Source of the DNA: a virus
Taxonomy: Duplodnaviria; Caudoviricetes
IMG/VR virus record: IMGVR_UViG_3300045958_000007
Coordinates: 8,929-72,928 of that record
DNA length: 64,000 bases
Reading direction: 5' to 3' (one strand)
Both the position numbers and the translations under genes were made by a program. Each line of letters begins with the position of its first letter. Position 1 is the first letter of the stretch. The notes below the pieces were generated by a model. That model saw only the letters and a program-made list of their open reading frames with translations. It searched no databases and was not told the origin of the DNA. Shown one piece after another: positions 24,808 to 64,000 of this stretch.

Positions 24808-25065
24808 TCAATCAAGCTCATCGAACTGAAGTGTGGTCAGACGGTCCTCGTCGGGCACCCAATGCGCCGGGGTGCTGGGTAAGAGCGGGCTCCGGAGCGG
24901 CTCGCCGAGCGCGCTCCCTCGCGCGATGCTCGGCCGTGCGTAGTAGGCGCGCTCCGCCGCACCGTGGTTGGCGTCGAAGATTTCAGCCCATCGCGCGCAG
25001 TCGCACCGGCGGAGGCCACATGGACAGCCACCATCCAGAGCGGGCGCCAGAGCGGTTGCTGCCAT
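24808..25065 (-). CDS. Small Cys-rich protein, paralogue of 26102..26353
   Basis: CDCARWAEIFDANHG...AYY motif. Confidence 0.55.
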   Translation of the reverse strand: MAATALAPALDGGCPCGLRRCDCARWAEIFDANHGAAERAYYARPSIARGSALGEPLRSPLLPSTPAHWVPDEDRLTTLQFDELD

Positions 25066-25067
25066 AG

Positions 25068-26102
25068 TTATGCCGCGAGGCGGCGCTCCGCGATCGCTAG
25101 ATATGCGGGCTCGCGCTCGATCGCGACAATTTCTTTCCAACCCGCGCGGCGGGCGCCCAGAACCTCGGAGCCCGACCCGGCGAACGGCACCAGCAGCCGG
25201 GCGTCGGGCGAGGGCGGCAGAATCAGGCGCGCCAGATACTCGCACAGCTTCACCGGCTTTACCGTGGGGTGCGTGTTGCCTTCGCCGCGCTCTTTCTTAC
25301 TGGCCTTGGCGCAGTAGAAGAAGCGGCTTGCCCCGCCGGCGTCGTTTTTCCAACCTGGCGGGCATTGGTGGCCGTTGAACTTCCCCCAGGTGTTGCGTGT
25401 CTTGTCGGCATGCCGCCGATCCGGAAAGCCGCCGGAGTGCAGGGTGCCGGTCTGCGCGTCCAGCTCGGCCGCAGATTGGGGATCCAGGATGACGTTCGCC
25501 GGCCAGCGGCCGGAGTCGTGCCGCGCGCTGCGGTATTCCTGCCGGCCCGGCGAGTCAATGAACCCTGGTTTGCAGTTGCGGTTACTGCTGCCCCACACCC
25601 CGTTTCCCTTCGGCCCGGGGATGCGGCAGGTGTTGATTGCGAGCGGTCGCTTTTTGCCCGGCTTCCACGCCAGCGTAATCGGCTCCCATGCGGGTTTCAG
25701 GTTGCCGCCCTTGGGAAACCCCTGCCCGTAGAGCCAGCAGAGCGTATCGCCGATCAGGAAACCCGCGTCCTCTAGCGCGCAGGCCAGGCGGTGAAAGGTC
25801 CGCGGTCCGCCGAAGGCCAGCAGCGGCGCGCCGGGCTTGAGCACGCGGAGAACCTTGGCCCAAACCTCCGGGCCCGGTACGCGATCATCCCACCTCATGC
25901 CCATGAACCCGCCGGGACCGTTGCCGGCGCCGATCCGCGCACGCCCTGCCGGATGCCGCAGATTGATCGAACGAACCCCGCTGCCACCTTGCTTATTCGC
26001 CGTGAGGCCATACGGCGGATCGCAGAGGCAGGCATCAAATGATCCCGCCGGCATCGCGCGCAACGCCTCGGCCACCTCGCCCGCTACAATCCTGGTGCTC
26101 AT
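25068..26102 (-). CDS. DNA methyltransferase, beta class, DPPY (likely N6-adenine)
   Basis: CDPPYG, HPTVKPVKLCEYL and LLVPFAGSGS motifs. Confidence 0.9.
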   Translation of the reverse strand: MSTRIVAGEVAEALRAMPAGSFDACLCDPPYGLTANKQGGSGVRSINLRHPAGRARIGAGNGPGGFMGMRWDDRVPGPEVWAKVLRVLKPGAPLLAFGGPRTFHRLACALEDAGFLIGDTLCWLYGQGFPKGGNLKPAWEPITLAWKPGKKRPLAINTCRIPGPKGNGVWGSSNRNCKPGFIDSPGRQEYRSARHDSGRWPANVILDPQSAAELDAQTGTLHSGGFPDRRHADKTRNTWGKFNGHQCPPGWKNDAGGASRFFYCAKASKKERGEGNTHPTVKPVKLCEYLARLILPPSPDARLLVPFAGSGSEVLGARRAGWKEIVAIEREPAYLAIAERRLAA

Positions 26103-26353
26103 CAATCACTCCCCCGGCCGAGCGACGATAGCGGCGACTGCGGATGGATCGCGCGCGGGCTGTAGTAATCCCGCATGGTCTCCCCGTGGTTGCGCTCGAA
26201 AATCTCGTCCCATTTCGCGCACTCGCATCGCTCCCGGCGCCCGCACCACTGGCACCGCGGCGCCGTCTTGTCCTCTTGCGTGGCGGCGCGCTCGTAGTTC
26301 GCGCGCCGGTGGCAGTTGCGGCAGATCCCGCAGGAACACCGGGGAACCTTCAC
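26102..26353 (-). CDS. Small Cys-rich protein
   Basis: GTG start by GTGA overlap; CSCGICRNC and CECAKWDEIFERNHG...DYY. Confidence 0.55.
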   Translation of the reverse strand: MKVPRCSCGICRNCHRRANYERAATQEDKTAPRCQWCGRRERCECAKWDEIFERNHGETMRDYYSPRAIHPQSPLSSLGRGSD

Positions 26354-26826
26354 CGGGGCCGTCGTCTCCGCTTTGGGCGATGGCGGCAGCTCCGGCGCTG
26401 CGCGCCCATAGCGGCAGCCGCCGGCTTTTCGTTGGCCTCCGCCGGAGCGGCCGGTGCGGTCTCGCGGGCCGCGCTCGCCAGGCTCACGGCCACGGGCAGC
26501 AGGTAGCGCCGCGCAAACTGGTCCAGTTCGAGCCCGAGCTCGGCGACCGGCAATTGAAAGTCGACGTAGATCGGACTCTTGCGCCCCACCGGGAAGATGA
26601 CTGCCGCGAACGCCACCAGGTCGTTCTTTTCCCCGGCGCCGTAGACCCATTCGAGGTGGAGCGCCGCCTTCTTCGCGTGGTCGATCGCGCTGGCGTAGCC
26701 GCCGATTTCGAGGTCGCGTTCGCCGGTGCCGGGGCTGTACATCTCGGGCGTCCGGCCGCCGTCCTTCTCGAATTCCGCCTCGAGGAGCCGCAGACACTCG
26801 AATGCGATGTGCGCGCCTTTCAGCAT
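26350..26826 (-). CDS. Hypothetical protein
   Basis: Start MLKGAHIA; coupled on both sides. Confidence 0.55.
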   Translation of the reverse strand: MLKGAHIAFECLRLLEAEFEKDGGRTPEMYSPGTGERDLEIGGYASAIDHAKKAALHLEWVYGAGEKNDLVAFAAVIFPVGRKSPIYVDFQLPVAELGLELDQFARRYLLPVAVSLASAARETAPAAPAEANEKPAAAAMGAQRRSCRHRPKRRRRPR

Positions 26827-27083
26827 CCGTTGAAAAGGTTCTCCATGCGCCCCACCGAGGGGTGCGCGCCGCGGCGCTGGGTGAAGTTCAGGAGGCTCGA
26901 GGATTTCTCGGCGCACCGCTCGGCGGCTTCGCGGATCTCAAACAGAAGGGGCCGGTTGGGGGCGTCCGCCGGAAGGGCGCCGATATAACGATCGATTCCG
27001 GTGAGGATGATGGTGAGCTCGTCGTTGAAGTCTTTCGCGCCGGCGGAGGCCACCGCGTTGATCCAGTCCGCCTGACTGCTCAT
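26820..27083 (-). CDS. Stand-alone HisKA/DHp-like domain lacking the phospho-accepting His
   Basis: AKDFNDELTII...LPADAPNRPLLFEIREAAERCAEKSSSLLNFTQRR matches the AHDFNNLLT...EI..A.ER...LL.F.R pattern with H replaced by K. Confidence 0.7.
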   Translation of the reverse strand: MSSQADWINAVASAGAKDFNDELTIILTGIDRYIGALPADAPNRPLLFEIREAAERCAEKSSSLLNFTQRRGAHPSVGRMENLFNGC

Positions 27084-27322
27084 TACTTCTTGAGGCCCGC
27101 GGACACCATGAACATCGTTCCGATGGCCCCGCCCAGCAGGAGCACCAGCATCCCGAGACCCGTCATCATCATGGTTTTGAGCGAGTCCAGCTTGCCGTCC
27201 ATCCTGACGATCGCCTCCTCGTTCTTGCCGATTTGCTCGTGCAGGTTTTCGATTTTCGCGCCGTGCTCCGCCACTCGGCTGGCGAGGGGATTTTCGGCGG
27301 AGATGGCGGTCGGGCTGGTCAT
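27083..27322 (-). CDS. Coiled-coil protein with C-terminal transmembrane helix
   Basis: Heptad pattern then MMMTGLGMLVLLLGGAIGTMFMV. Confidence 0.7.
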   Translation of the reverse strand: MTSPTAISAENPLASRVAEHGAKIENLHEQIGKNEEAIVRMDGKLDSLKTMMMTGLGMLVLLLGGAIGTMFMVSAGLKK

Positions 27323-27506: not shown

Positions 27507-28154
27507 TTACTGGTTGACGCAACTGCCCGAGACCGCGGCGTTGACTACCCGCTGGATGTCGACGAGGCCGAACGTGGATCCACTGCTGAGGCTCTTCAGG
27601 CTACCGACACCGCTGACTACCTGGGACACTGCCGCCACTACGTCGAGCGCGTTGGTTGCGCCGTCGCCGTTCAGATCGCAGGGGGAGAGCAGGGGGATGT
27701 TGACCGCCGGGCCCGCGGCCGTGGCGACGGCGCTTCCGGCGAGTGACGCCGATAGGGTGTTGGTCAAGGTGAACGAGGGGCCCGTGGTGTTGGCTGAGGT
27801 GAACGGGCTGATGGGCGCTACCGGCACCGCGACGGTGGCCACCACGCCGTCCGCCAGGGTGTTGCTGTTGACGCCGTAGAGGACGCAGGTGGTCGTCTGC
27901 TGCGCGTTGGCGCCACACTGCACGGTTTTCTGGGCGGCCGTCGCCGCCGGTCCGGCGGTGACCGTGGCGCCGGACGGAACGGTGAAACTCCACTCCGACG
28001 CCGCGATGTTCTGGCCGGCCGAGCCGGCGAGGTTGATGCTGACGGTAGCGGTCTGCCCCGGCCGCGTGGCCGGCGCGGATACGCCGAGGCTGGGCCCGCT
28101 CTGCGCGATCGCGAGCGAGGCCAGCAAGAGGGTCATCAGGAGGATTCTCTTCAT
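27507..28154 (-). CDS. Secreted cohesin-like plus dockerin-like protein
   Basis: MKRILLMTLLLASLAIAQ; PGQTATVSINL...DGVVATV cohesin-like; CDLNGDGATNALDV...DIQRVVNA dockerin-like. Confidence 0.7.
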   Translation of the reverse strand: MKRILLMTLLLASLAIAQSGPSLGVSAPATRPGQTATVSINLAGSAGQNIAASEWSFTVPSGATVTAGPAATAAQKTVQCGANAQQTTTCVLYGVNSNTLADGVVATVAVPVAPISPFTSANTTGPSFTLTNTLSASLAGSAVATAAGPAVNIPLLSPCDLNGDGATNALDVVAAVSQVVSGVGSLKSLSSGSTFGLVDIQRVVNAAVSGSCVNQ

Positions 28155-28486
28155 GCTGCTTTGTTTCTCAGGCTTTCGTGGTGAACCCACAGCGCCACCG
28201 CCACCCGGTTCGGAAGCTCCAGCTTCGTCATGACGGCGTGCATGTACTGTTTGACCGTCCCGGGGGTGAGGTGCAGGCGACTACCGATTTCCTTGTTTTG
28301 CAGGCCCTGCCCCACCAGGAGCGCGACCTGCCGCTGGCGGCTGGTAAGCTCTCTCGATGGAGGACGGTGCTTCTTCAGCGCCGGGCCCTTGCAGTCCGGG
28401 CAGACCCGGGCGCTCTCGGTGCGAAACTCCCTCCCGCAACGGCTGCAGGTGCGGGCTTCCAGCACGGCCGGGAAATTCTGACTCAT
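28151..28486 (-). CDS. Zn-ribbon plus LuxR-type HTH regulator
   Basis: CSRC...CPDC; LTSRQRQVALLVGQGLQNKEIGSRLHLTPGTVKQY. Confidence 0.85.
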   Translation of the reverse strand: MSQNFPAVLEARTCSRCGREFRTESARVCPDCKGPALKKHRPPSRELTSRQRQVALLVGQGLQNKEIGSRLHLTPGTVKQYMHAVMTKLELPNRVAVALWVHHESLRNKAA

Positions 28487-28855: not shown

Positions 28856-29269
28856 TCAGATTTCGAGCGTCGAGTGGATGGCCTCGACCGCTTCCCGAAT
28901 GACTTCCACCCTGGCCTGCAGCCGCGTGAGGCGCACTCCCATGGGCGACACTGCCGGGCCTGGCGCGGTCTTCTCGCCGGTGTTCGGCTGCGGGTTCGCC
29001 CGCACTACCTCGAGGCGGCTCCCCAGCCTTTCAACGGCTTCCCCAAGGGCGTCGATCTCCTTCTCTACGCGCTCGGCGATCTCGGGAATTTCGAGCGTCC
29101 GCTTCGGGTGTTGCAAGTGGATGGGCTCGCCGGCCGGGAAAGTGGTTTTGAGAATCCGGCGCGGATCGTTCACGATGCCCACTTCCTGCTCGGGTGCCGT
29201 GTTGTGCTTGGCGGCTTCGGCCCGCTGCCATTCCTCTTGTGCGCGCTTATATTCTCGAAAGTCAGTCAT
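28856..29269 (-). CDS. Hypothetical protein
   Basis: Start MTDFREYK coupled to nusG-like stop. Confidence 0.55.
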   Translation of the reverse strand: MTDFREYKRAQEEWQRAEAAKHNTAPEQEVGIVNDPRRILKTTFPAGEPIHLQHPKRTLEIPEIAERVEKEIDALGEAVERLGSRLEVVRANPQPNTGEKTAPGPAVSPMGVRLTRLQARVEVIREAVEAIHSTLEI

Positions 29270-29847
29270 CACGCTGCTTTTCTCCCCTGAAACTCCGGCC
29301 GCGCCGGCGCCGACATCGCCGGCATCATGACTTTCACTGGCTCCCTCGCGATGGGCTCTAACATCGCCACGTCCACCTCGGCCGAAATCGACCGCCGCAG
29401 CATGGTGACGCTGACGATCACCCGCGCGGAATTCTTCGCGTACACAACGAAACCTTCGAGGCCCGCGAGCGGCCCGCGCACGACTCGCACTCGATCGCCG
29501 GCGCTGACAAAAGCGCAGGACTCGACCGCCTTTACCAGGGGTGTGTTTACGATCCGGCGGACCGCCGCGACCTCGAACTCGGAAAGGGCGACCGGAGACC
29601 GCCCGCACCCTACGATGCTTACCACTTGCGGAATCTCGATCACCGGCCGCGCATGAAGCAGCTCAAACCTTGCGAAGCAGTAGCCCGGGAAAAACTTGCG
29701 TTCGATGGTGCGGGCTCCGCCCTTGCGCGAGGGGTCCTTGCGCTCCTCTACCAGGTGCGGATAGAAGGCATCGATTCCCTCCCGGCCGAGTTTGTCGACC
29801 ACGAGGCGTTCCTGGGCGGAGCGGCAGTGTAGGGCGTACCAATCCAT
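29269..29847 (-). CDS. NusG/UpxY/RfaH-family transcription antiterminator
   Basis: WYALHC...FFPGYCFARF NGN domain; GDRVRVVRGPLAGLEG KOW domain. Confidence 0.9.
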   Translation of the reverse strand: MDWYALHCRSAQERLVVDKLGREGIDAFYPHLVEERKDPSRKGGARTIERKFFPGYCFARFELLHARPVIEIPQVVSIVGCGRSPVALSEFEVAAVRRIVNTPLVKAVESCAFVSAGDRVRVVRGPLAGLEGFVVYAKNSARVIVSVTMLRRSISAEVDVAMLEPIAREPVKVMMPAMSAPARPEFQGRKAA

Positions 29848-56812: not shown

Positions 56813-59800
56813 TTACTGGGCGGCGGCGGCCCGCATCTCGGCGGGGCCGATGTGCAACTCCCGCAATCGGTCGAGGAGGTGCTGCTGGTCCTGGGCGGCG
56901 AGGCGCGGGAATTGCTGCCGCAGCTTTTGGGCGAGCACGGGTAGGAAGCGCTGCCTCTCCTCCGCGTTTGCGGCATCCATGGCGTCGAGCGCCGCGGCTA
57001 CGCCGAGCGATCTGAACCCTGCCACGTCCTTCGGCACGCGCGCCCGCTCTACCGCTTTGCGGATATCGGCCGGTGAGGCGATACCGTCGCGCACGGCCTT
57101 TTGCGCCAACGCGCGCGCGCGTTCGATGTCCCGATCCCGGAGGGCGTCTGTAATCCGATTGCTCGTTTCCTGCCTGTTGATCTCGTTGAGGGCCTCGCGC
57201 TGCTTCGCCAGAAACTCGGCGTGCGAGAGCGTGGTCGTCGGGTGGCTGAAGAGCTGCGGCGCGGCGAGATCCACGATCATGCGGAGCCAGCGGTTCTCGG
57301 GATCGTCGGCATGCGCGAGCACGCCCCTGGTGAACCCGGTGGCCGCCCCTACGTTGGCGAGAAAACCGTTCATGGTGAGGAACGGGCCGAGGAGGTGCTG
57401 CTTCACCCATCCGGTTGCGCCGGGCTTCTGCTTTTCGACCGCGCCCAGCGTCTGAAGGCTCGGTTTGCCGCGGTCGTCACGGAATCCCGTTATGTATGGC
57501 TCGGTTCCCGTGATTCCCACCCAAGCGGTTTTGGCGGGCGGTCCCATCACCGGCTCGACGGCGGCATTGACGGCACCGGCGACGGCCGCGTCCATCATCT
57601 GATCGGCGCTCGCGTGTACCTGATGGGCTTCAAACATTTGAGCGATGCCCAGCGCGCGGGCGCCGCGGTAGACGAGCGGCGAGAACCATTGGAGGCCGAT
57701 GTAGGCGTCACCGTTCGAGGGCGGGCCCCAGATCTGCCGCGCCAGCCACGAATTCCGGTCCTCGGAGTTCAGCCGCACCGCCAGGAATTTCGCGTGCGGG
57801 TCCTCCCACGGCCATTTCCCGGTGTAGGCGCGGTGCGCCGCCAGCCAGAGCGCGATGAGGCCCACGGCGCCGCCGGTGATCGCAGTCAGGGCGCGCAGCC
57901 ACCGGCCGCCCTTGCCTTCGACGGGCATCGGCCCGCGGCCGGTCCAGGCATTCACTCCGTTGCGGACCATCGTGCTGCCCGCGGTATAAAACGGGCTCCA
58001 GCCGCTCTCCTTCAAGCTACGCTCGATGCGGCCCTGCAGCGCCCGGGTATAGTTGCCGAGCTGGTTGACGAAACGGTACATCTCGCGGGGGGTCGCGCCG
58101 GGGTTGATTGCCTTCGCCGTGCGGTACATCAGCAGGCGCGCGCGAATGTCGACGCCGCGGGGGCCGTACAGGAATGGGCCGAACCCGCGCTCGAGCTTCG
58201 CCCCGGTCTGTTCCGCAAACTCCCGGCTCTTCCGGAACCAGGCCGAGGCCACGGCGCCGTACTTTTCGGGGATGAGGCCGAGCTTCGCCATTTCCGCAAT
58301 ATCCCGCGCCGCTTCTTCGTTGGTCGGGTCGGTATTGATGAGGTGCAGAATCGCCGCCGCGCGCTTAGTGAACGGCAGATTGCCGGCGGCCTTCGCGGCG
58401 AGGCTGCGGCCGAGGAACGGCGTATTCGCCACCAGCGTCCCGATGAGATTCGACGAGTGGATTACCGCGTCGAGCGGGCCGGCGAGCGTGAATTTGGTGA
58501 TGCGCCCGATCAGACTCTTGGGGTCGGACAGGTTGAGGTGGCGCTTATCGAGGATCGGCCGCAGCTCCTCCTCCAGCCACGCCGGGATAACGCCTCTGCC
58601 GGCGGGGAGGTGAACCGTACCGTTGGGAGTAATGAGGGTGCGGTCGGGGTGCGTCTCGATCGTGACCCCCTGATACTCGACGCCCCGCCAGGTGATCGTA
58701 TCCGGCGCCTCCTCCCCCTGCTTTACCTTCCGCAGCAGTCCCGCCTTGTGCAGAGCTTCGATCAGGGCGGCCTTATTGTTCACCCGGAAGGCATTTCGGA
58801 TGCGGTCATTGAATGCCTCCATCGAGGGGTCGTAAGCCTCGCCGTGGCCGGTGGCGAACATATTGGCGATGTTGCGCGGCTTGCGGTAGGGGACGGCGCG
58901 CCCGCTGCGGCCGGGAGCCTTGTGGGCCTCCTCTCCTTCCTCATCGAGCCGGATCAGCGGGTAGTAAGTCTTGAGCGGGCCCAGCGCATCGCTGAATACG
59001 CCCTCGTTCTCCTCGTGGTTGCGGGCGACCGGATCTTCGAGCAGCCGCTTATAGACATCGAGGCCGCGGGCGAACCCAGGGTTGCCGGTGATGTCGTCGA
59101 ATTCATCATCCGGCATCATCTCGGCCACGCGATCGGCCGCCCGGTTAAAGGTGTCCTCCAGGAAGGCGCGCAGCCCGTCGAAGTCCTCGCGTTCGAGCAG
59201 CGCCGCGGCGGTGATAGCAGGGGACTCCAGCGGCTCTCCCACGCTCTCCTCATGGATGGCCTTGAGCACCGGCGCCAGCCACTTCCCGAAAGAGTCGTGG
59301 AGGTCCTCGTCGGTCGACTCGATCGCCCCCTCGGCCATGTTCTGCCACCGCTCCCGGATGCCGCGCAGCCGGCTTTCGATCAGGGCGCGGCGGAAGTCGA
59401 GCCAGGAGGGGCCGTCCTTGCCGAGCGCCTCGACGATCCGGGGCACGGACGCGCGCACCAGGGCCGAGGTCTGCGCCCGCGAGGTGGCGGCTTTGACGGC
59501 TTGCGCGTGGACGCCGGGATGGGCTTTCTCCAGTTGCGAGAGGTTGCGGACGTACTTATCTTTCCAGGCCCCGAGGCCGGAGTAACTGACCTTGGCTTCG
59601 TCGTCGTGCCTTCGGTTCAGATTGCGGTATAGGTCGCGGGCGGCGGCGGCTACTCGCGAAGTGCCGGTCTCGTCTTTGAGGAAGTCGCGGGCCGGATTGA
59701 CTTCGGGTTTCTCGGACGCGATATTTGTATTGGAGCGGCCACCTGCGGACGGAGGAGCCTTGTCAGTCCGTCCCTCGCCCGGGTGAGATCCAGGGATGTC

Positions 59801-62800
59801 CGTCGTCCCCTTGGTAGTAGGCGGCTGCTCCCCTTCCTTTAGCGCGTGATAGAACTGTCGCGAAACGGGTCCGAACGGCCCTATTTCTTCGGCTTCTCTG
59901 GCTGCGAGAGTGCCCGGCTGCTGCCCGGAAACATCTCGTCCAGTTTCTTCTGCAGGGCTTCCTCGTCCCCCTCCTGGGCTGACTTCACCAGGTCTTGCAT
60001 GTTGCGTTTCGACTCCGCCAGCTCCGCCGGGGAGAGTTTCGTCTTTGAGGACCGACTCATAAATTTGATTGACGATGGTAGCAGCCTTGGCACCGTTCTG
60101 CCCCACCAGCCCCTTTACATAGGCTTCCGCCAGGTCGCGCGCTTCCTGCGCGGTAAGCCCTAACTCCTGCCAGCGCCCCGGCCGCATCAGCCGAACGCCG
60201 ATCTCGGCCACGATGATGGCGCGGTTGTGCTCGTAGAACGGCGATTGGGGGTTGAGCTTCGGGTAGCCGATCCGCCGGAGGGCCTCGTATGCCTTCTGGC
60301 CGGCGGCCGTTTCGACTACATGCGCCGGCAGGCTTCGCAGTCCCTTGGGCAGCTCCATCTGCTGCGCGTGATCGTACTCCTCCTCGGCGACTCGCTTGAG
60401 AACGTGGTCCGGGATGCGCGGACCCGCCTGGACAACGATCAGGGGCGGGCGCTTGGGGGCGCGGATGTCCTTCGGGTGCGTAAACAACGGCTGGGGGTTG
60501 TGCGGGTTGTCCTGCGCCTGGCGCTCGAAGTGGGCATCGATCCCGAGCGCCTTTGCGATCTGGTTGGCGACGTCGAACAGGGCCTCGTCGAATCCGGGGT
60601 CGCTGTCGTCTGATCTCGGGTTGTGCGCCGCGGCGCGGGCTTCCTCGAGGATGTTCGTCCACTCGTGCGGCCCCAGCACGGTGCCGATCGTGTGACGCGA
60701 GTTTTCCCCGAGCCCTACCTGCCCCATGCGCCTCAGCACGACGTCCATGGCGGGAGCGTTGACCACCAGAGCCGGGACGTTGCCGAACTTCCGGGCGTAG
60801 GCCTTGGCTCCGCCCCAATACATTTGGAGCTGCCCGGTAGTGGGGGTGTCGGCGGGATACCCGGGCTCGGAGAGGCGCCGCACGGTCCGCGGGTCGAGCG
60901 AGAATTCGCCGGGCCGGCGCGTGCGCGGCGGCTTGGCCAGGTCGTCAATGGTGACGGAACGCTCGCCGAACAGGTCCATCTGATCCGGCGAGGCGGCGCG
61001 CTCGCGGGCGCGGAGATCGTCGAGGGGGACGGATTCAAAGGGACGGGCGTAGGTGGCGGGGTGCTCGCGGCTCGGCGGTAGCGCAGGGTTGCGCTGCCCT
61101 TCGGGCGTCGACGTGGCCGCCGGCGGGGCCGGTTGTTCGTCAGCGAGACGGAGGAGCCGGTTGATTTCGTGGGTGAGACGGAATAGCTCGGTAGGGGCGT
61201 CCTTCCCCAGCTTGTCGAGCAGGCGGTCGCCGTCCTTGAGTACCGAGCGGAGTTGGCCGCGATCAATGGCGCTGTAGTCGCCCTTGCTCTGCGCGCCCTC
61301 CAGGGTTGTCAGCGCCGTCTGCAGGCGCGCCATGGTAACGGAGGGGTCTTCGGATGGGGTGAGCTGGGTGGATGCCGCTGCGGGCGCGGGCGGCGTCAGT
61401 ACCTTCAGATTGCGCGATCGCTGGGTATTGCCGGCATACGGCGTCCCGTCGTCGGCCTTGATGTGAAAGTCGCCGCGGTCGTTGTCAACGTCGGTAACGA
61501 CACCCTCGCGGGTCTGCCAGCCGCCGCGGCGCTCCTCAAAGGAGACGCGATCGCCGGTTTTGACCGGGACCGCCTTGGTGATCTTGAGTGGGGTGGTGTC
61601 CTTCACCCGCTCAATCGCGTTCCCGGTTTCCTCTTCTGGGTCGATGATGTAGTTGCCCGGCTCGGTACGGATGACGTACCCGTGGAGGGTCTTGCTCCCG
61701 GCCTTCCACCGCACGCGCTTGCCTACAAATTCCTGCGGCCTGGACGCGCCCGGAGCGGCCGGGGGCTCCGTGCCGTTCAGCTTCTCCTCGAGGCGCTTGA
61801 TCTCGGGCAGATAGTAATTGGTGAGGAGATCGGTCCCCGGGTCGGCGGGATCGCCGGTGCGCCCGCGCGCCAGCTCGTCGCGGTCCTCTCGCAATTCGTT
61901 CAGCCGCTCGACGAGGCCCTCGCGAGTAGCGGGGTCGCCGCGGAGCTCGTGGAGCTGGAATTTAAACCACTTATTTGCGGCGAGGATTTCGCGCTCGCGC
62001 ATCTTCTCCGGGTAACGGGAGCGGTCGATATCGCGCAGCCGTTCCCTCAGCTCTTCCTGGATGTCCTCCAGGGTTTTCTGTGCCCTTGCCGGCGCGGTCG
62101 GTTCGGGCTCGGGGGCTGCGGGCGGCAGCTTCGACTTATCGAGTTCGTAATGGGTGTAGTAGTGCGGCGGGGGTGCGGTGTGGCCCTCCGGCACATGGCC
62201 CGGCGGTCCCGCCGCATACCGCGGCGTGAGGACGCCCTCGCGGACGAATTGGGCGATGACGCGCTCCGTGTCGCTCCCGGGAGCTGCCGAGATCTCAAAC
62301 ATTGGCCCCTTGGAGTCGCCCTTGTAGTAAAACTCCGAGGAATTGACTTCGGGCCGCTCGCCGCGCCAGTCTTCGGCCGCGATTTTCTGCAGCACGTCGA
62401 GGCCTCGCCGGTATTCGTCGGGGCTCGGCGCGGGTATCCCTTCCGGGTTGGAGAGCCGCTCGAATTCCGCGCGCCGCGCCTGGTTGTGCGCCTCGCGCGC
62501 AGCGTCTTCCTTCTGCTGCTTCTTTTGCTCGGGGGTGAGTTCGGCCGCCGGCGGCGCTACTTCCGGTTGGGTTGCTGCTGGCCCGGCAGGGGCTCCGCCT
62601 GGAACTGAATTTCCTGCCCCGGCGCCGGCCGGAGGCTGCCCGGCTGGAGCAGGAGACTCCGCAGGAACGCCAGAGCCCGCTGCCTGCCCCCCGGTGAGAC
62701 GCTGAACCTGGCGGGTGAGTTCGTCGCGGATGGCCCGGTAGGCGCGTTGTTTGACTTCGGCATGTGGCTGTCCTTGGGCGAGTTCCCGCGCGGACTGATC

Positions 62801-64000
62801 GAGAATCGCGTCGATCGGCCCGGCGCTGGTGCTCAGTTTATCGTAGAGTTGAATCCCCTGATTAGCCGCCTGGTGCGCCTGCTGGTTGGCGGCCGTCTGG
62901 ATGCTGTTCCCGGTTTGGGTAAGGGTTTGGGCCGCGGCGTCGGTCGAGACCGCGCCGAAGAGTTTGCGCTCGGCTCCGAGCTGCTTGCGCACATAGTCGC
63001 TGATCTCTGCCTTTTCGGGGAGGAGCGAGCGCGTCATCTCCTCTTCGCCGAAGAGGCCACCCTGCGCCTGATCGGCGGTCGACTCGGTAATGGTCGAGGT
63101 GCGCTGGTTGAGCCGGATGAGTTCGCCCACCTGATCGTTGGTGAGGCGCTGACCGTTCTGCTCGCGCTGCTTCAGTAGGGTGTAGAGCGCGGTCTGGTCG
63201 GCATGATTCGGAACGCCCGCGCCGATGACGGCGCCGCGCTCGACCGAGAGCTCGCCCGCAATTACGTCGTCGAAGATCGCCGGAGCGAGGTTGGAGAGTG
63301 CCAGCCCTTGCGCGGCGACCTTTCCCTTGAGCGAAACTCCCTGCTGCGCGAGTTGGTCCGGGGTCAGGCCGGAGTCGCGGAAGACCTTGGCGGCGTCGGT
63401 GGCATCGCCGCGGCCCTCGGCAATATTCGCGAGCGCCCCCTGTAGCCGCGCCTCCTGGGCGTTGGGCGCGTCCAGGTAACGCACCAGCATTTGCTGCGCG
63501 GCTGGTTGCGTGGGGGCGAGACGGTTGGCGAGATCCAGGCGGTGATGGCCGTTGACGATGTAGGTTTGGCCGTCGTCCGGATCGCGCCAGACGAGGGTAA
63601 TGCCGGCTTTGACCGGATCCCACACCGGCACGCCCCGCAGCTCTTCGCCGGCGCCGCCCTGCCCCACGTTGCGCTTGAACTGGAAGCGGGTCGGGTCGGC
63701 GACGATCGAGGAGGTGGGGATGTAGCCCACCCAGCCGGGCGCGCCGGGGGCGGGGGCCTGGGGAAGCGCGGGGGACGGCGGCGGAGTTGCGGTGGGGGCC
63801 GGCGGTGGGGCGGCAGGCTCGCTCGGCGATCCAGCAGGCGTGGTAGCGGCGGCGGCCGGGGCCGGGGCCGGGGCGCTGCTCATCCGATCGAGCTGCGCCT
63901 GGAGATCGTGCGCGGCGTCCTCGTCCCCGTCCTCAACTGCGGCGCTGAGGCGGCGCTGTAGTTCGGCGATACGCGCCTGCTGTGCCTGTTGAACGAGCGC
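56813..64000 (-). CDS. Giant polyvalent / DNA-ejection-type virion protein, 5' end beyond the window (>2395 aa)
   Basis: Frame stays open from 63883 to 64000 (ALVQQAQQARIAELQRR...LDRMSSAP); ParB-like FQFK...WDP...YIVNGHHR; SH3/KOW-like units; helical C-terminal half. Confidence 0.85.
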   Translation of the reverse strand, partial: ALVQQAQQARIAELQRRLSAAVEDGDEDAAHDLQAQLDRMSSAPAPAPAAAATTPAGSPSEPAAPPPAPTATPPPSPALPQAPAPGAPGWVGYIPTSSIVADPTRFQFKRNVGQGGAGEELRGVPVWDPVKAGITLVWRDPDDGQTYIVNGHHRLDLANRLAPTQPAAQQMLVRYLDAPNAQEARLQGALANIAEGRGDATDAAKVFRDSGLTPDQLAQQGVSLKGKVAAQGLALSNLAPAIFDDVIAGELSVERGAVIGAGVPNHADQTALYTLLKQREQNGQRLTNDQVGELIRLNQRTSTITESTADQAQGGLFGEEEMTRSLLPEKAEISDYVRKQLGAERKLFGAVSTDAAAQTLTQTGNSIQTAANQQAHQAANQGIQLYDKLSTSAGPIDAILDQSARELAQGQPHAEVKQRAYRAIRDELTRQVQRLTGGQAAGSGVPAESPAPAGQPPAGAGAGNSVPGGAPAGPAATQPEVAPPAAELTPEQKKQQKEDAAREAHNQARRAEFERLSNPEGIPAPSPDEYRRGLDVLQKIAAEDWRGERPEVNSSEFYYKGDSKGPMFEISAAPGSDTERVIAQFVREGVLTPRYAAGPPGHVPEGHTAPPPHYYTHYELDKSKLPPAAPEPEPTAPARAQKTLEDIQEELRERLRDIDRSRYPEKMREREILAANKWFKFQLHELRGDPATREGLVERLNELREDRDELARGRTGDPADPGTDLLTNYYLPEIKRLEEKLNGTEPPAAPGASRPQEFVGKRVRWKAGSKTLHGYVIRTEPGNYIIDPEEETGNAIERVKDTTPLKITKAVPVKTGDRVSFEERRGGWQTREGVVTDVDNDRGDFHIKADDGTPYAGNTQRSRNLKVLTPPAPAAASTQLTPSEDPSVTMARLQTALTTLEGAQSKGDYSAIDRGQLRSVLKDGDRLLDKLGKDAPTELFRLTHEINRLLRLADEQPAPPAATSTPEGQRNPALPPSREHPATYARPFESVPLDDLRARERAASPDQMDLFGERSVTIDDLAKPPRTRRPGEFSLDPRTVRRLSEPGYPADTPTTGQLQMYWGGAKAYARKFGNVPALVVNAPAMDVVLRRMGQVGLGENSRHTIGTVLGPHEWTNILEEARAAAHNPRSDDSDPGFDEALFDVANQIAKALGIDAHFERQAQDNPHNPQPLFTHPKDIRAPKRPPLIVVQAGPRIPDHVLKRVAEEEYDHAQQMELPKGLRSLPAHVVETAAGQKAYEALRRIGYPKLNPQSPFYEHNRAIIVAEIGVRLMRPGRWQELGLTAQEARDLAEAYVKGLVGQNGAKAATIVNQIYESVLKDETLPGGAGGVETQHARPGEVSPGGGRGSPAEETGRDVSGQQPGTLAAREAEEIGPFGPVSRQFYHALKEGEQPPTTKGTTDIPGSHPGEGRTDKAPPSAGGRSNTNIASEKPEVNPARDFLKDETGTSRVAAAARDLYRNLNRRHDDEAKVSYSGLGAWKDKYVRNLSQLEKAHPGVHAQAVKAATSRAQTSALVRASVPRIVEALGKDGPSWLDFRRALIESRLRGIRERWQNMAEGAIESTDEDLHDSFGKWLAPVLKAIHEESVGEPLESPAITAAALLEREDFDGLRAFLEDTFNRAADRVAEMMPDDEFDDITGNPGFARGLDVYKRLLEDPVARNHEENEGVFSDALGPLKTYYPLIRLDEEGEEAHKAPGRSGRAVPYRKPRNIANMFATGHGEAYDPSMEAFNDRIRNAFRVNNKAALIEALHKAGLLRKVKQGEEAPDTITWRGVEYQGVTIETHPDRTLITPNGTVHLPAGRGVIPAWLEEELRPILDKRHLNLSDPKSLIGRITKFTLAGPLDAVIHSSNLIGTLVANTPFLGRSLAAKAAGNLPFTKRAAAILHLINTDPTNEEAARDIAEMAKLGLIPEKYGAVASAWFRKSREFAEQTGAKLERGFGPFLYGPRGVDIRARLLMYRTAKAINPGATPREMYRFVNQLGNYTRALQGRIERSLKESGWSPFYTAGSTMVRNGVNAWTGRGPMPVEGKGGRWLRALTAITGGAVGLIALWLAAHRAYTGKWPWEDPHAKFLAVRLNSEDRNSWLARQIWGPPSNGDAYIGLQWFSPLVYRGARALGIAQMFEAHQVHASADQMMDAAVAGAVNAAVEPVMGPPAKTAWVGITGTEPYITGFRDDRGKPSLQTLGAVEKQKPGATGWVKQHLLGPFLTMNGFLANVGAATGFTRGVLAHADDPENRWLRMIVDLAAPQLFSHPTTTLSHAEFLAKQREALNEINRQETSNRITDALRDRDIERARALAQKAVRDGIASPADIRKAVERARVPKDVAGFRSLGVAAALDAMDAANAEERQRFLPVLAQKLRQQFPRLAAQDQQHLLDRLRELHIGPAEMRAAAAQ

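Follow-up and report, generated by a model that had tools for sequence, protein, structure and literature searches.

What could a bacteriophage do with the dimerisation hairpin of a histidine kinase in which the phospho-accepting histidine is replaced by lysine? The question is raised by an 87-amino-acid open reading frame (ORF), here called P0001, in a 64,000-nucleotide stretch of DNA from a soil phage, the window, which corresponds to bases 8929-72928 of the 72,928-bp IMG/VR virus record IMGVR_UViG_3300045958_000007. Bacteria sense their surroundings mainly through two-component signalling, and the dimerisation and histidine phosphotransfer (DHp) hairpin is thought of as a part of its kinases. 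A preliminary description made from the letters of the window had taken P0001 for a stand-alone mimic of this hairpin. The analysis presented below points to a different origin, a small chromosomal protein of the bacterial host, and suggests a role as a competitor of that protein.

P0001 resembles the DHp hairpin of CckA/NtrB-type kinases

The gene and the segment equivalent to the H-box of histidine kinases are located as follows.

26820..27083, minus strand: P0001, stand-alone DHp-like gene, 87 amino acids, ATG start (from the ORF and its translation)
27003..27038, minus strand: H-box equivalent, residues 16-27, A-K-D-F-N-D-E-L-T-I-I-L (from the CckA alignment and family column counts)

The best match of P0001 among PDB sequences in a phmmer search was Caulobacter CckA (5idj_A; residues 8-73 against 10-75, E 0.013). 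A profile of 40 members of the family described below, run against the whole PDB, returned CckA 5idj_A only (E 3.1e-11), with profile positions 3-87 covering the DHp region and the linker into the ATPase domain; the CckA equivalog models of NCBIfam matched the DHp region weakly (E 1.2e-4). The phospho-acceptor His has its counterpart in Lys17 (codon AAA, 27033-27035), and the H-box of P0001 carries two family signatures, Asn at +3 and Glu at +5. These matches are far above chance and bear out the part of the preliminary description that saw a CckA/NtrB-type DHp with Lys in the place of the phospho-His.

Pfam and PHROGs gave no usable match for P0001. The protein lies outside the curated HisKA model (PF00512; no match at E<=1), which was matched by just 4 of the 40 family members, at best with E 0.0021, below threshold; true kinase fragments (P0081 and P0138) matched HisKA at E 1e-8 to 1e-10. 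At E<=1, P0001 matched neither Hpt (PF01627) nor HPTransfase. Kinase inhibitors such as Sda and KipI were likewise absent from its Pfam matches at E<=1, and any resemblance to them would be functional only.

An AlphaFold2 model of P0001, computed with the family alignment, is a helical hairpin (mean predicted local distance difference test score, pLDDT, 93.8). Two long, antiparallel helices span residues 4-36 and 44-70, and a short one follows at the C-terminus (80-86). Foldseek returned nothing for this model from the PDB at E<=1e-3. The wide VIA-align search placed the GacS DHp (7z8n_A) among the top matches (Z 9.5, root-mean-square deviation 2.3, 73 residues), with ESCRT-III, phyllogen and other unrelated hairpins scoring alike; ZraS and LOV-HK (LOV-kinase chimeras) were also returned, mixed with unrelated hairpins. 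Because a helical hairpin matches so many unrelated hairpins, the fold alone is not diagnostic for a DHp.

P0001 ends 17 residues past helix 2 and contains no sensor, ATPase or receiver domain, just as the preliminary description had it. Searches with PF00072 (receiver) and PF02518 (HATPase_c) were negative across the 72,928-bp phage genome, and the PF02518 control search was positive in 14 of 14 genomes. By all these comparisons, P0001 is identified as a DHp-only protein, consisting of the CckA/NtrB-type two-helix dimerisation and phosphotransfer hairpin and a short linker that would normally lead to the ATPase domain.

A family of small DHp proteins conserved in Bryobacterales

An exhaustive phmmer search with P0001 over 1.84 billion representatives yielded 200 proteins at E<=1e-3. 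The top relative was P0002 (86 amino acids, 61% identity, E 3.7e-24), and about 100 of the best 150 representatives measured 61-162 amino acids. Some 50 of the matches were long proteins (E 1e-7 to 5e-4), aligned over mid-protein stretches that were taken as DHp; those checked were histidine kinases. Word-index homologue searches gave the query alone at near length and none at longer length, which reflects the sensitivity limit of such searches, the family being found by the exhaustive one. A profile search of a 5.8-billion-protein set gave 628 clusters at E<=1e-8. The displayed names were "hypothetical protein" save four histidine-kinase labels, and no listed row carried a precomputed Pfam domain. 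The family so delimited consists of DHp-only proteins of 80-135 amino acids, mostly about 85-100. The preliminary description knew of no example of this kind, and we found no paper, Pfam or NCBIfam entry describing a stand-alone DHp family.

With each GTDB species represented by a single genome, a scan identified 98 family loci, nearly all in metagenome-assembled genomes (MAGs) of Bryobacterales/Solibacteraceae. The first broad alignment had been too diverse for locus scans, and a narrower one was used. A tally at the level of orders (12 of 121 genomes matching) was judged unreliable because just 43 candidates per genome had been scored.

The bacterial loci were read with a gene caller based on GC content at third codon positions (GC3), which was validated on the window. 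In at least 47 loci so read, tsaD (PF00814, E 1e-80) lies directly downstream of the small DHp gene on the same strand. A tblastn search linked 58 of 96 loci to tsaD and placed 7 beside an Hsp70+DUF3731 gene; on metagenome contigs, tsaD was immediately downstream in 17 of 22 loci. None of the phage genes that neighbour P0001 in the window was present at the bacterial loci. When five large Bryobacterales genomes were scored with the family profile, each gave exactly one short-frame match (125-135 bits, open frames of 90-137 amino acids) and then, after a wide gap, 16-38 long-frame matches (433-1557 amino acids) at <=62 bits, which were read as kinases. The median pairwise ratio of nonsynonymous to synonymous substitution rates (dN/dS) among 50 host copies was 0.18 (485 pairs), an approximate value since dS is high. 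With a single copy per genome, a wide score gap to the kinases and this dN/dS, the gene, carried by a subset of Bryobacterales, behaves as a conserved orthologue and not as kinase debris. The preliminary description had allowed that relatives of P0001 might turn out to be decaying fragments of full kinases; instead, they are single-copy, syntenic and under purifying selection. We rejected such an origin on these grounds and on two further ones considered below, the scores on a host profile and the signatures kept by members that lack the His. Candidate host genomes contain 7-12 ordinary Hpt domains each, so that the small DHp family is not needed as the sole phosphotransfer module, nor as a substitute for missing histidine-containing phosphotransfer (HPt) proteins, although a role of the latter kind is conceivable.

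Some loci showed further peculiarities. Divergently placed in about 25 host loci are genes for a 585-amino-acid protein that briefly matches S55 (SpoIVB) peptidases and for a 731-amino-acid beta-propeller protein (Reg_prop/SGL repeats), at distances of about 1.3 and 3.3 kb on the upstream side of the small DHp gene (for example, L078:3985-5742:- and L013:1700-3895:-). The same small-DHp/tsaD/S55-like/propeller neighbourhood as in Bryobacterales was seen in L005 (DATNFO010000029.1), a contig labelled Candidatus Limnocylindrales (Chloroflexota), which is either mis-binned or the product of a transfer. Members of one subclade (L075, L077, L079, L080, L084, L092 and L093; support of 99 in the Shimodaira-Hasegawa-like approximate likelihood ratio test, SH-aLRT) have an N-terminal extension and, in place of tsaD, an 880-amino-acid Hsp70+DUF3731 gene as neighbour. 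The copy linked to this gene is the sole strong family match in two genomes (G099 and G127).

The phage copy as a member of the host family

To place P0001 relative to the host proteins, a hidden Markov model was built from 53 tsaD-linked host copies only. P0001 scored 97.8 bits with this model (E 2.8e-30) and ranked 38 of 157, whereas the long proteins of the set reached at most 71.2 bits (median 52.3). Its identity to host family members of similar length, among them P0003, P0005 and the L015 gene upstream of tsaD, is 40-60%, and at all 17 positions with a conservation of 75% or more within the family it has the conserved residue. The positions at which the small family differs from the long, kinase-type proteins are these.

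Before the H-box: Ala-Ala-Ala in the small family, Gly-Gly-Val in the long proteins
H+5: Glu in the small family, Leu in the long proteins
Helix 2: Cys in the small family, Ala in the long proteins
Helix 2, second position: Lys in the small family, Leu in the long proteins
Before Phe/Tyr: Asn in the small family, Ala in the long proteins
After helix 2: Gly (Gly-x-x-Pro tail) in the small family, Val/Pro in the long proteins
C-terminal helix: Glu in the small family, Asn in the long proteins

P0001 has the family state at H+5, at the Cys and Lys of helix 2, at the Asn, at the Gly and at the C-terminal Glu, and is intermediate before the H-box (Ser-Ala-Gly). Two residues set it apart from the family, the Lys at the His position and a Glu in place of the Trp of helix 2. 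Nor does it share the position next to tsaD; its place is in an accessory block of the phage, flanked by an XhlA-like gene and a gene designated orf158. These comparisons identify P0001 as a captured copy of a chromosomal host family of Bryobacterales (Acidobacteriota). The gene is therefore not a phage invention; it was copied from a chromosomal family that is usually found upstream of tsaD and mostly carries the His.

IMG/VR contained just three further loci with a small DHp gene (L002, L003 and L004), all His-bearing. L002 is a provirus with an 89-amino-acid gene, also present in a Bryobacteraceae MAG (L029 and L086); the genome holding this provirus (G119) has a chromosomal copy as well (L097). 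The viral contigs L003 and L004 carry a NusG-like gene 46% identical to that of the window, and their gene order is sigma-region-4 gene, 101-amino-acid His-bearing DHp copy, serine recombinase. A tree of 180 sequences and 92 columns, poorly resolved and used mainly for the pairing of P0001 with P0002 and for the scatter of the phage copies, put the copies of L002, of L003/L004 and of the window in different parts. Judged from these placements, phages of Bryobacterales acquired the small DHp gene more than once. Assignment of the window to a Bryobacterales host is supported by the occurrence, in five Bryobacterales genomes, of portals 30-47% identical to its own.

The residues that characterize the family also bear on what P0001 might act upon. 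According to the preliminary description, P0001 would enter dimers of full-length CckA/NtrB-type host kinases or soak up response regulators, causing a dominant-negative shutdown. The homology to the DHp of this kinase class is genuine; each candidate host genome offers 16-38 long-frame matches with the same type of H-box, and precedents exist in the RetS-GacS DHp heterodimer (PMC8498467) and in PIT4 (PMC10714779). However, the score of P0001 on the host-only profile is well above that of the DHp of any long protein tested (97.8 versus <=71 bits), and P0001 and its family differ from the kinases on both helices: among other changes, the GG that precedes the H-box has become AA, the L at +5 an E, and the TRQ of helix 2 A/S-S-G. 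Moreover, DHp dimerisation is normally specific to paralogues. Because the family is conserved in bacteria without any phage, its surfaces are presumably shaped for a host function and not for the poisoning of kinases. Such a shutdown seems to us quite improbable, and full-length kinase dimers a less likely target than the host small DHp protein or its partner.

Repeated loss of the phospho-acceptor histidine

The acceptor position is occupied by His in 97% of 49 aligned long (kinase-type) proteins. Among the small representatives, 50 of 106 (about 47%, in an unbiased set) have no His and carry Arg (19), Ser (7), Gln (6), Ala (5), Lys (4), Asn (4) or other residues in its place. The His-less set retains Asn at +3 in 47 of 50 members, Glu at +5 in 43, the Arg of helix 2 in 47, the Cys in 37 and the Gly in 45, frequencies that match those of the His-bearing set; on the host profile it is slightly more divergent (84.6 versus 99.3 bits, p 0.005). 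Loss of the His requires about 25 changes on the poorly resolved tree, at least 7 of which are forced by supported branches. At the level of the sequence, this pattern shows that the His is dispensable, in many members, for the selective constraint on the rest of the protein.

In chromosomal copies linked to tsaD, the His was present in 12 of 13 cases in an unbiased sample of the order. It was found in 53 of 53 copies of a second set, which is biased since the genome pattern used permitted H, K or N only. One tsaD-linked lineage has Gln at this position (L102 and L104; L100 is similar). In the chromosomal member L091 (G013:C1:2228542-2231799), Arg takes the place of the His, and the match contains a single in-frame TGA.

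P0001 pairs with P0002, which has Thr, and then with P0004, which has Asn (SH-aLRT 92 and 84), in a subclade devoid of the His. P0001 and P0002 are 60-61% identical and end with the same octapeptide. The clusters of P0002, P0004 and other His-less representatives derive from short contigs of 1-7 kb, where they are named "hypothetical protein". A 480-amino-acid metagenome protein (P0032) matches phrog_2175 over its N-terminal 200 residues (E 1e-5), has a Gly/Asp/Arg-rich middle that looks like an off-frame read, and ends with 70 residues corresponding to a His-less (Ala) small DHp; probably, gene calling on a phage contig has run separate frames together here. The expectation that a residue other than His would be conserved in phage homologues was not borne out: L002 and L003/L004 keep the His, and the subclade of the window varies among K, T and N.

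Loss of the His on this scale raises the possibility that P0001 is a working equivalent of the host protein, namely an adaptor, a scaffold or a response-regulator phosphatase-like factor that functions independently of the His, and of which the phage adds an extra or replacement dose. Consistent with this idea, the other signatures are largely kept in the roughly 47% of family clusters that are His-less, tsaD-linked chromosomal copies with Gln exist, and three of the four virus or provirus records carrying the gene keep the His. In addition, the isolated DHp domain of EnvZ retains phosphatase activity towards OmpR-P. On the other hand, the strong preference of the tsaD-linked set for His suggests that this residue matters in the resident copy. 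Furthermore, H+4 is Asp in P0001 and not Asn or Thr, the residues linked at this position to the phosphatase activity of HisKA proteins. The phosphatase activity of this class is treated in PMC3510030. All considered, we find it rather unlikely that P0001 is such a working equivalent, although the idea is a rival to be taken seriously.

Proposed mode of action

We propose, as the most likely of the readings considered, that P0001 may be a non-phosphorylatable stand-in for the host small DHp protein, acting by dimerisation or by docking to a partner; the case for and the case against appear to us evenly matched. With Lys in place of the His and 17 of 17 conserved positions kept, P0001 offers no His to be phosphorylated but should remain able to fold, dimerise and dock. 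The Lys variant would thus retain access to the partners of the family. It would form mixed dimers with the host small DHp protein, or else occupy the partner of the latter, most plausibly a receiver domain. As a result, one host signalling route would be blocked, or its state fixed, for as long as the phage is present. That P0001 dimerises, which partner it has, in which direction it acts and how the phage gains from it are all inferred here.

Several points weigh against P0001 being a competitor of this kind. The residue that took the place of the His is K, T or N among the nearest relatives, and Lys itself has no demonstrable role. Structure searches do not separate the DHp from other hairpins. 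If the core function of the family never needs the His, which the many His-less members suggest, P0001 could work as a normal copy and not antagonise the host protein at all. Finally, the five genomes with related portals gave no family copy at E<=1e-17, so that a resident protein with which a phage copy would compete was not seen there.

A wider hypothesis can be offered tentatively, as one that we doubt more than we believe. The tsaD-adjacent DHp protein might be a minimal dimeric hub for phosphotransfer or receiver docking in Bryobacterales, and phages of these bacteria might deploy His-less copies as pseudo-phosphotransfer decoys that switch the route off. P0001 would then be the first mimic of a two-component phosphotransfer domain to come from a virus, and would be for bacteria what AHP6 is for plants. 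If P0001 is a competitor of the host protein, it would be a compact blocker, encoded in a gene and aimed at one specific signalling route, and would stand for a new class of interference between phage and host. Independently of its mode of action, the data describe a conserved, unannotated family of at least 628 sequence clusters in which the DHp hairpin stands alone, from which the phospho-acceptor His has been lost many times with no loss of constraint elsewhere, and of which phages of soil Acidobacteria have captured the gene. Even if P0001 is not a competitor, the host family is a candidate for a new acidobacterial signalling component missed by domain libraries.

Gene model and genomic neighbourhood

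The virus record has a CheckV completeness of 100% and a GC content of about 66%. Its phage genes include those for a portal, a large terminase, a scaffold, a tail-fibre, an invertase, a Mom-like protein, a NusG-like antiterminator, a LuxR/GerE regulator, a tyrosine integrase and two N6/N4 DNA methylases. The genes on either side of P0001 are the following.

27083..27322, minus strand: XhlA-like gene, 79 amino acids, upstream of P0001 (phrog_1193 "hemolysin", E 2.5e-5; weak Pfam XhlA match, E 0.13)
26350..26826, minus strand: orf158, 158 amino acids, downstream of P0001 (gene call)

GC contents at the first, second and third codon positions of P0001 are 0.60, 0.49 and 0.84, as in coding sequence. 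The TAA stop of the XhlA-like gene overlaps the ATG of P0001 (TAATG), and the ATG of orf158 overlaps the final codons of P0001 (ATGCTGA). A longer reading of 169 amino acids, obtained by extending the frame to 27329, was rejected. The extension has a GC3 of 0.40, as against 0.88 for the XhlA-like frame over the same DNA, and since the former is non-coding in character and the latter coding-like, the 87-amino-acid model is the correct one. The start is further backed by the closest homologues, P0002 and P0004, both of 86 amino acids, whose alignment begins at residue 2-3. Thus, the ORF at 26820-27083 proposed in the preliminary description is supported by its codon signal, by the overlaps with both neighbours and by its homologues. 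No promoter-like or terminator-like site was seen to interrupt the block around P0001.

No lead was obtained for orf158 in Pfam, PHROG, PDB or Atlas, and searches of viral contigs with orf158 and the NusG-like protein as queries found nothing. The five Bryobacterales genomes with related portals contain neither the XhlA-like gene nor orf158; as the related prophages have none of the three genes, P0001 is seen to sit in a variable accessory block. The absence of this block (XhlA-like gene, P0001 and orf158) from related prophages and from other viral contigs could mean that P0001 is a functionless passenger or a decaying remnant, taken up with neighbouring DNA. We hold this to be very improbable in the face of the intact frame, with its GC3 of 0.84 and its overlaps with both neighbours, the 17 of 17 conserved positions, the octapeptide and 60% identity shared with P0002, and a host-profile score that ranks it 38 of 157, within the top third of the family.

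Other features of the region were noted. No endolysin was recognised near the XhlA-like gene (27083-27322). Two genes lie upstream of P0001 and are transcribed in the same direction: one for a LuxR/GerE helix-turn-helix protein that begins with a zinc ribbon and lacks a receiver domain (28151-28486, minus strand), the other for the NusG-like antiterminator (phrog_6386, E 1.6e-23; 29269-29847, minus strand). In L003, too, the DHp-like gene comes after a NusG-like gene and a sigma-region-4 gene. Two small Cys-rich ORFs (26102-26353 and 24808-25245, both minus strand) have in common the motif C-x-C...W-x-EIF-x-x-NHG...YY, with 59% identity over 29 amino acids (E 2e-10), and gave no Pfam match. 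The first abuts, on the upstream side, the gene for a 345-amino-acid N6/N4 DNA methylase; the second is found in the interval between both methylase genes, upstream of the 403-amino-acid one and overlapping the 345-amino-acid one. The pair may be zinc-binding partners or controllers associated with the methylases. A 2356-amino-acid open frame at 56813-63883 (minus strand) of the window matched no Pfam family at E<=1e-4.

Comparison with known systems

Proteins that interfere with histidine kinases, or control signalling in the absence of the phospho-acceptor, have been described. RetS blocks GacS via a DHp-DHp heterodimer (PMC8498467), the phage protein PIT4 binds several histidine-kinase domains (PMC10714779), and the DivL pseudokinase is a His-less kinase homologue that controls two-component signalling (PMC4211667). 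In contrast to P0001, none of them is DHp-only: RetS and DivL are full-length multidomain kinases, and PIT4 is not reported in PMC10714779 as a DHp homologue.

P0001 has in common with the HisKA DHp of CckA/NtrB (PF00512; 5IDJ) the hairpin, the H-box context A-x-D-F-N-x-x-L-T, the Pro-x-Arg of the loop and the Arg of helix 2. It differs from these kinases by having no ATPase, sensor or receiver domain, by the Lys in place of the phospho-His and by the residues specific to its family. With respect to the host small DHp proteins, which are chromosomal, single-copy, usually adjacent to tsaD and nearly always His-bearing, P0001 is phage-borne, part of an accessory block and marked by its Lys. Spo0B of Bacillus and ChpT of Caulobacter are dimeric DHp-like hairpins that serve as phosphorelay intermediates and have no kinase activity. 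However, both possess a C-terminal ATPase-like domain and an essential His, neither of which is found in P0001. AHP6 of Arabidopsis is a His-less pseudo-phosphotransfer protein that acts as a competitive inhibitor of the phosphorelay in cytokinin signalling. Although AHP6 has the HPt fold (a monomeric four-helix bundle) and is eukaryotic, unrelated in sequence and non-viral, it provides the closest functional analogy to the mechanism proposed for P0001.

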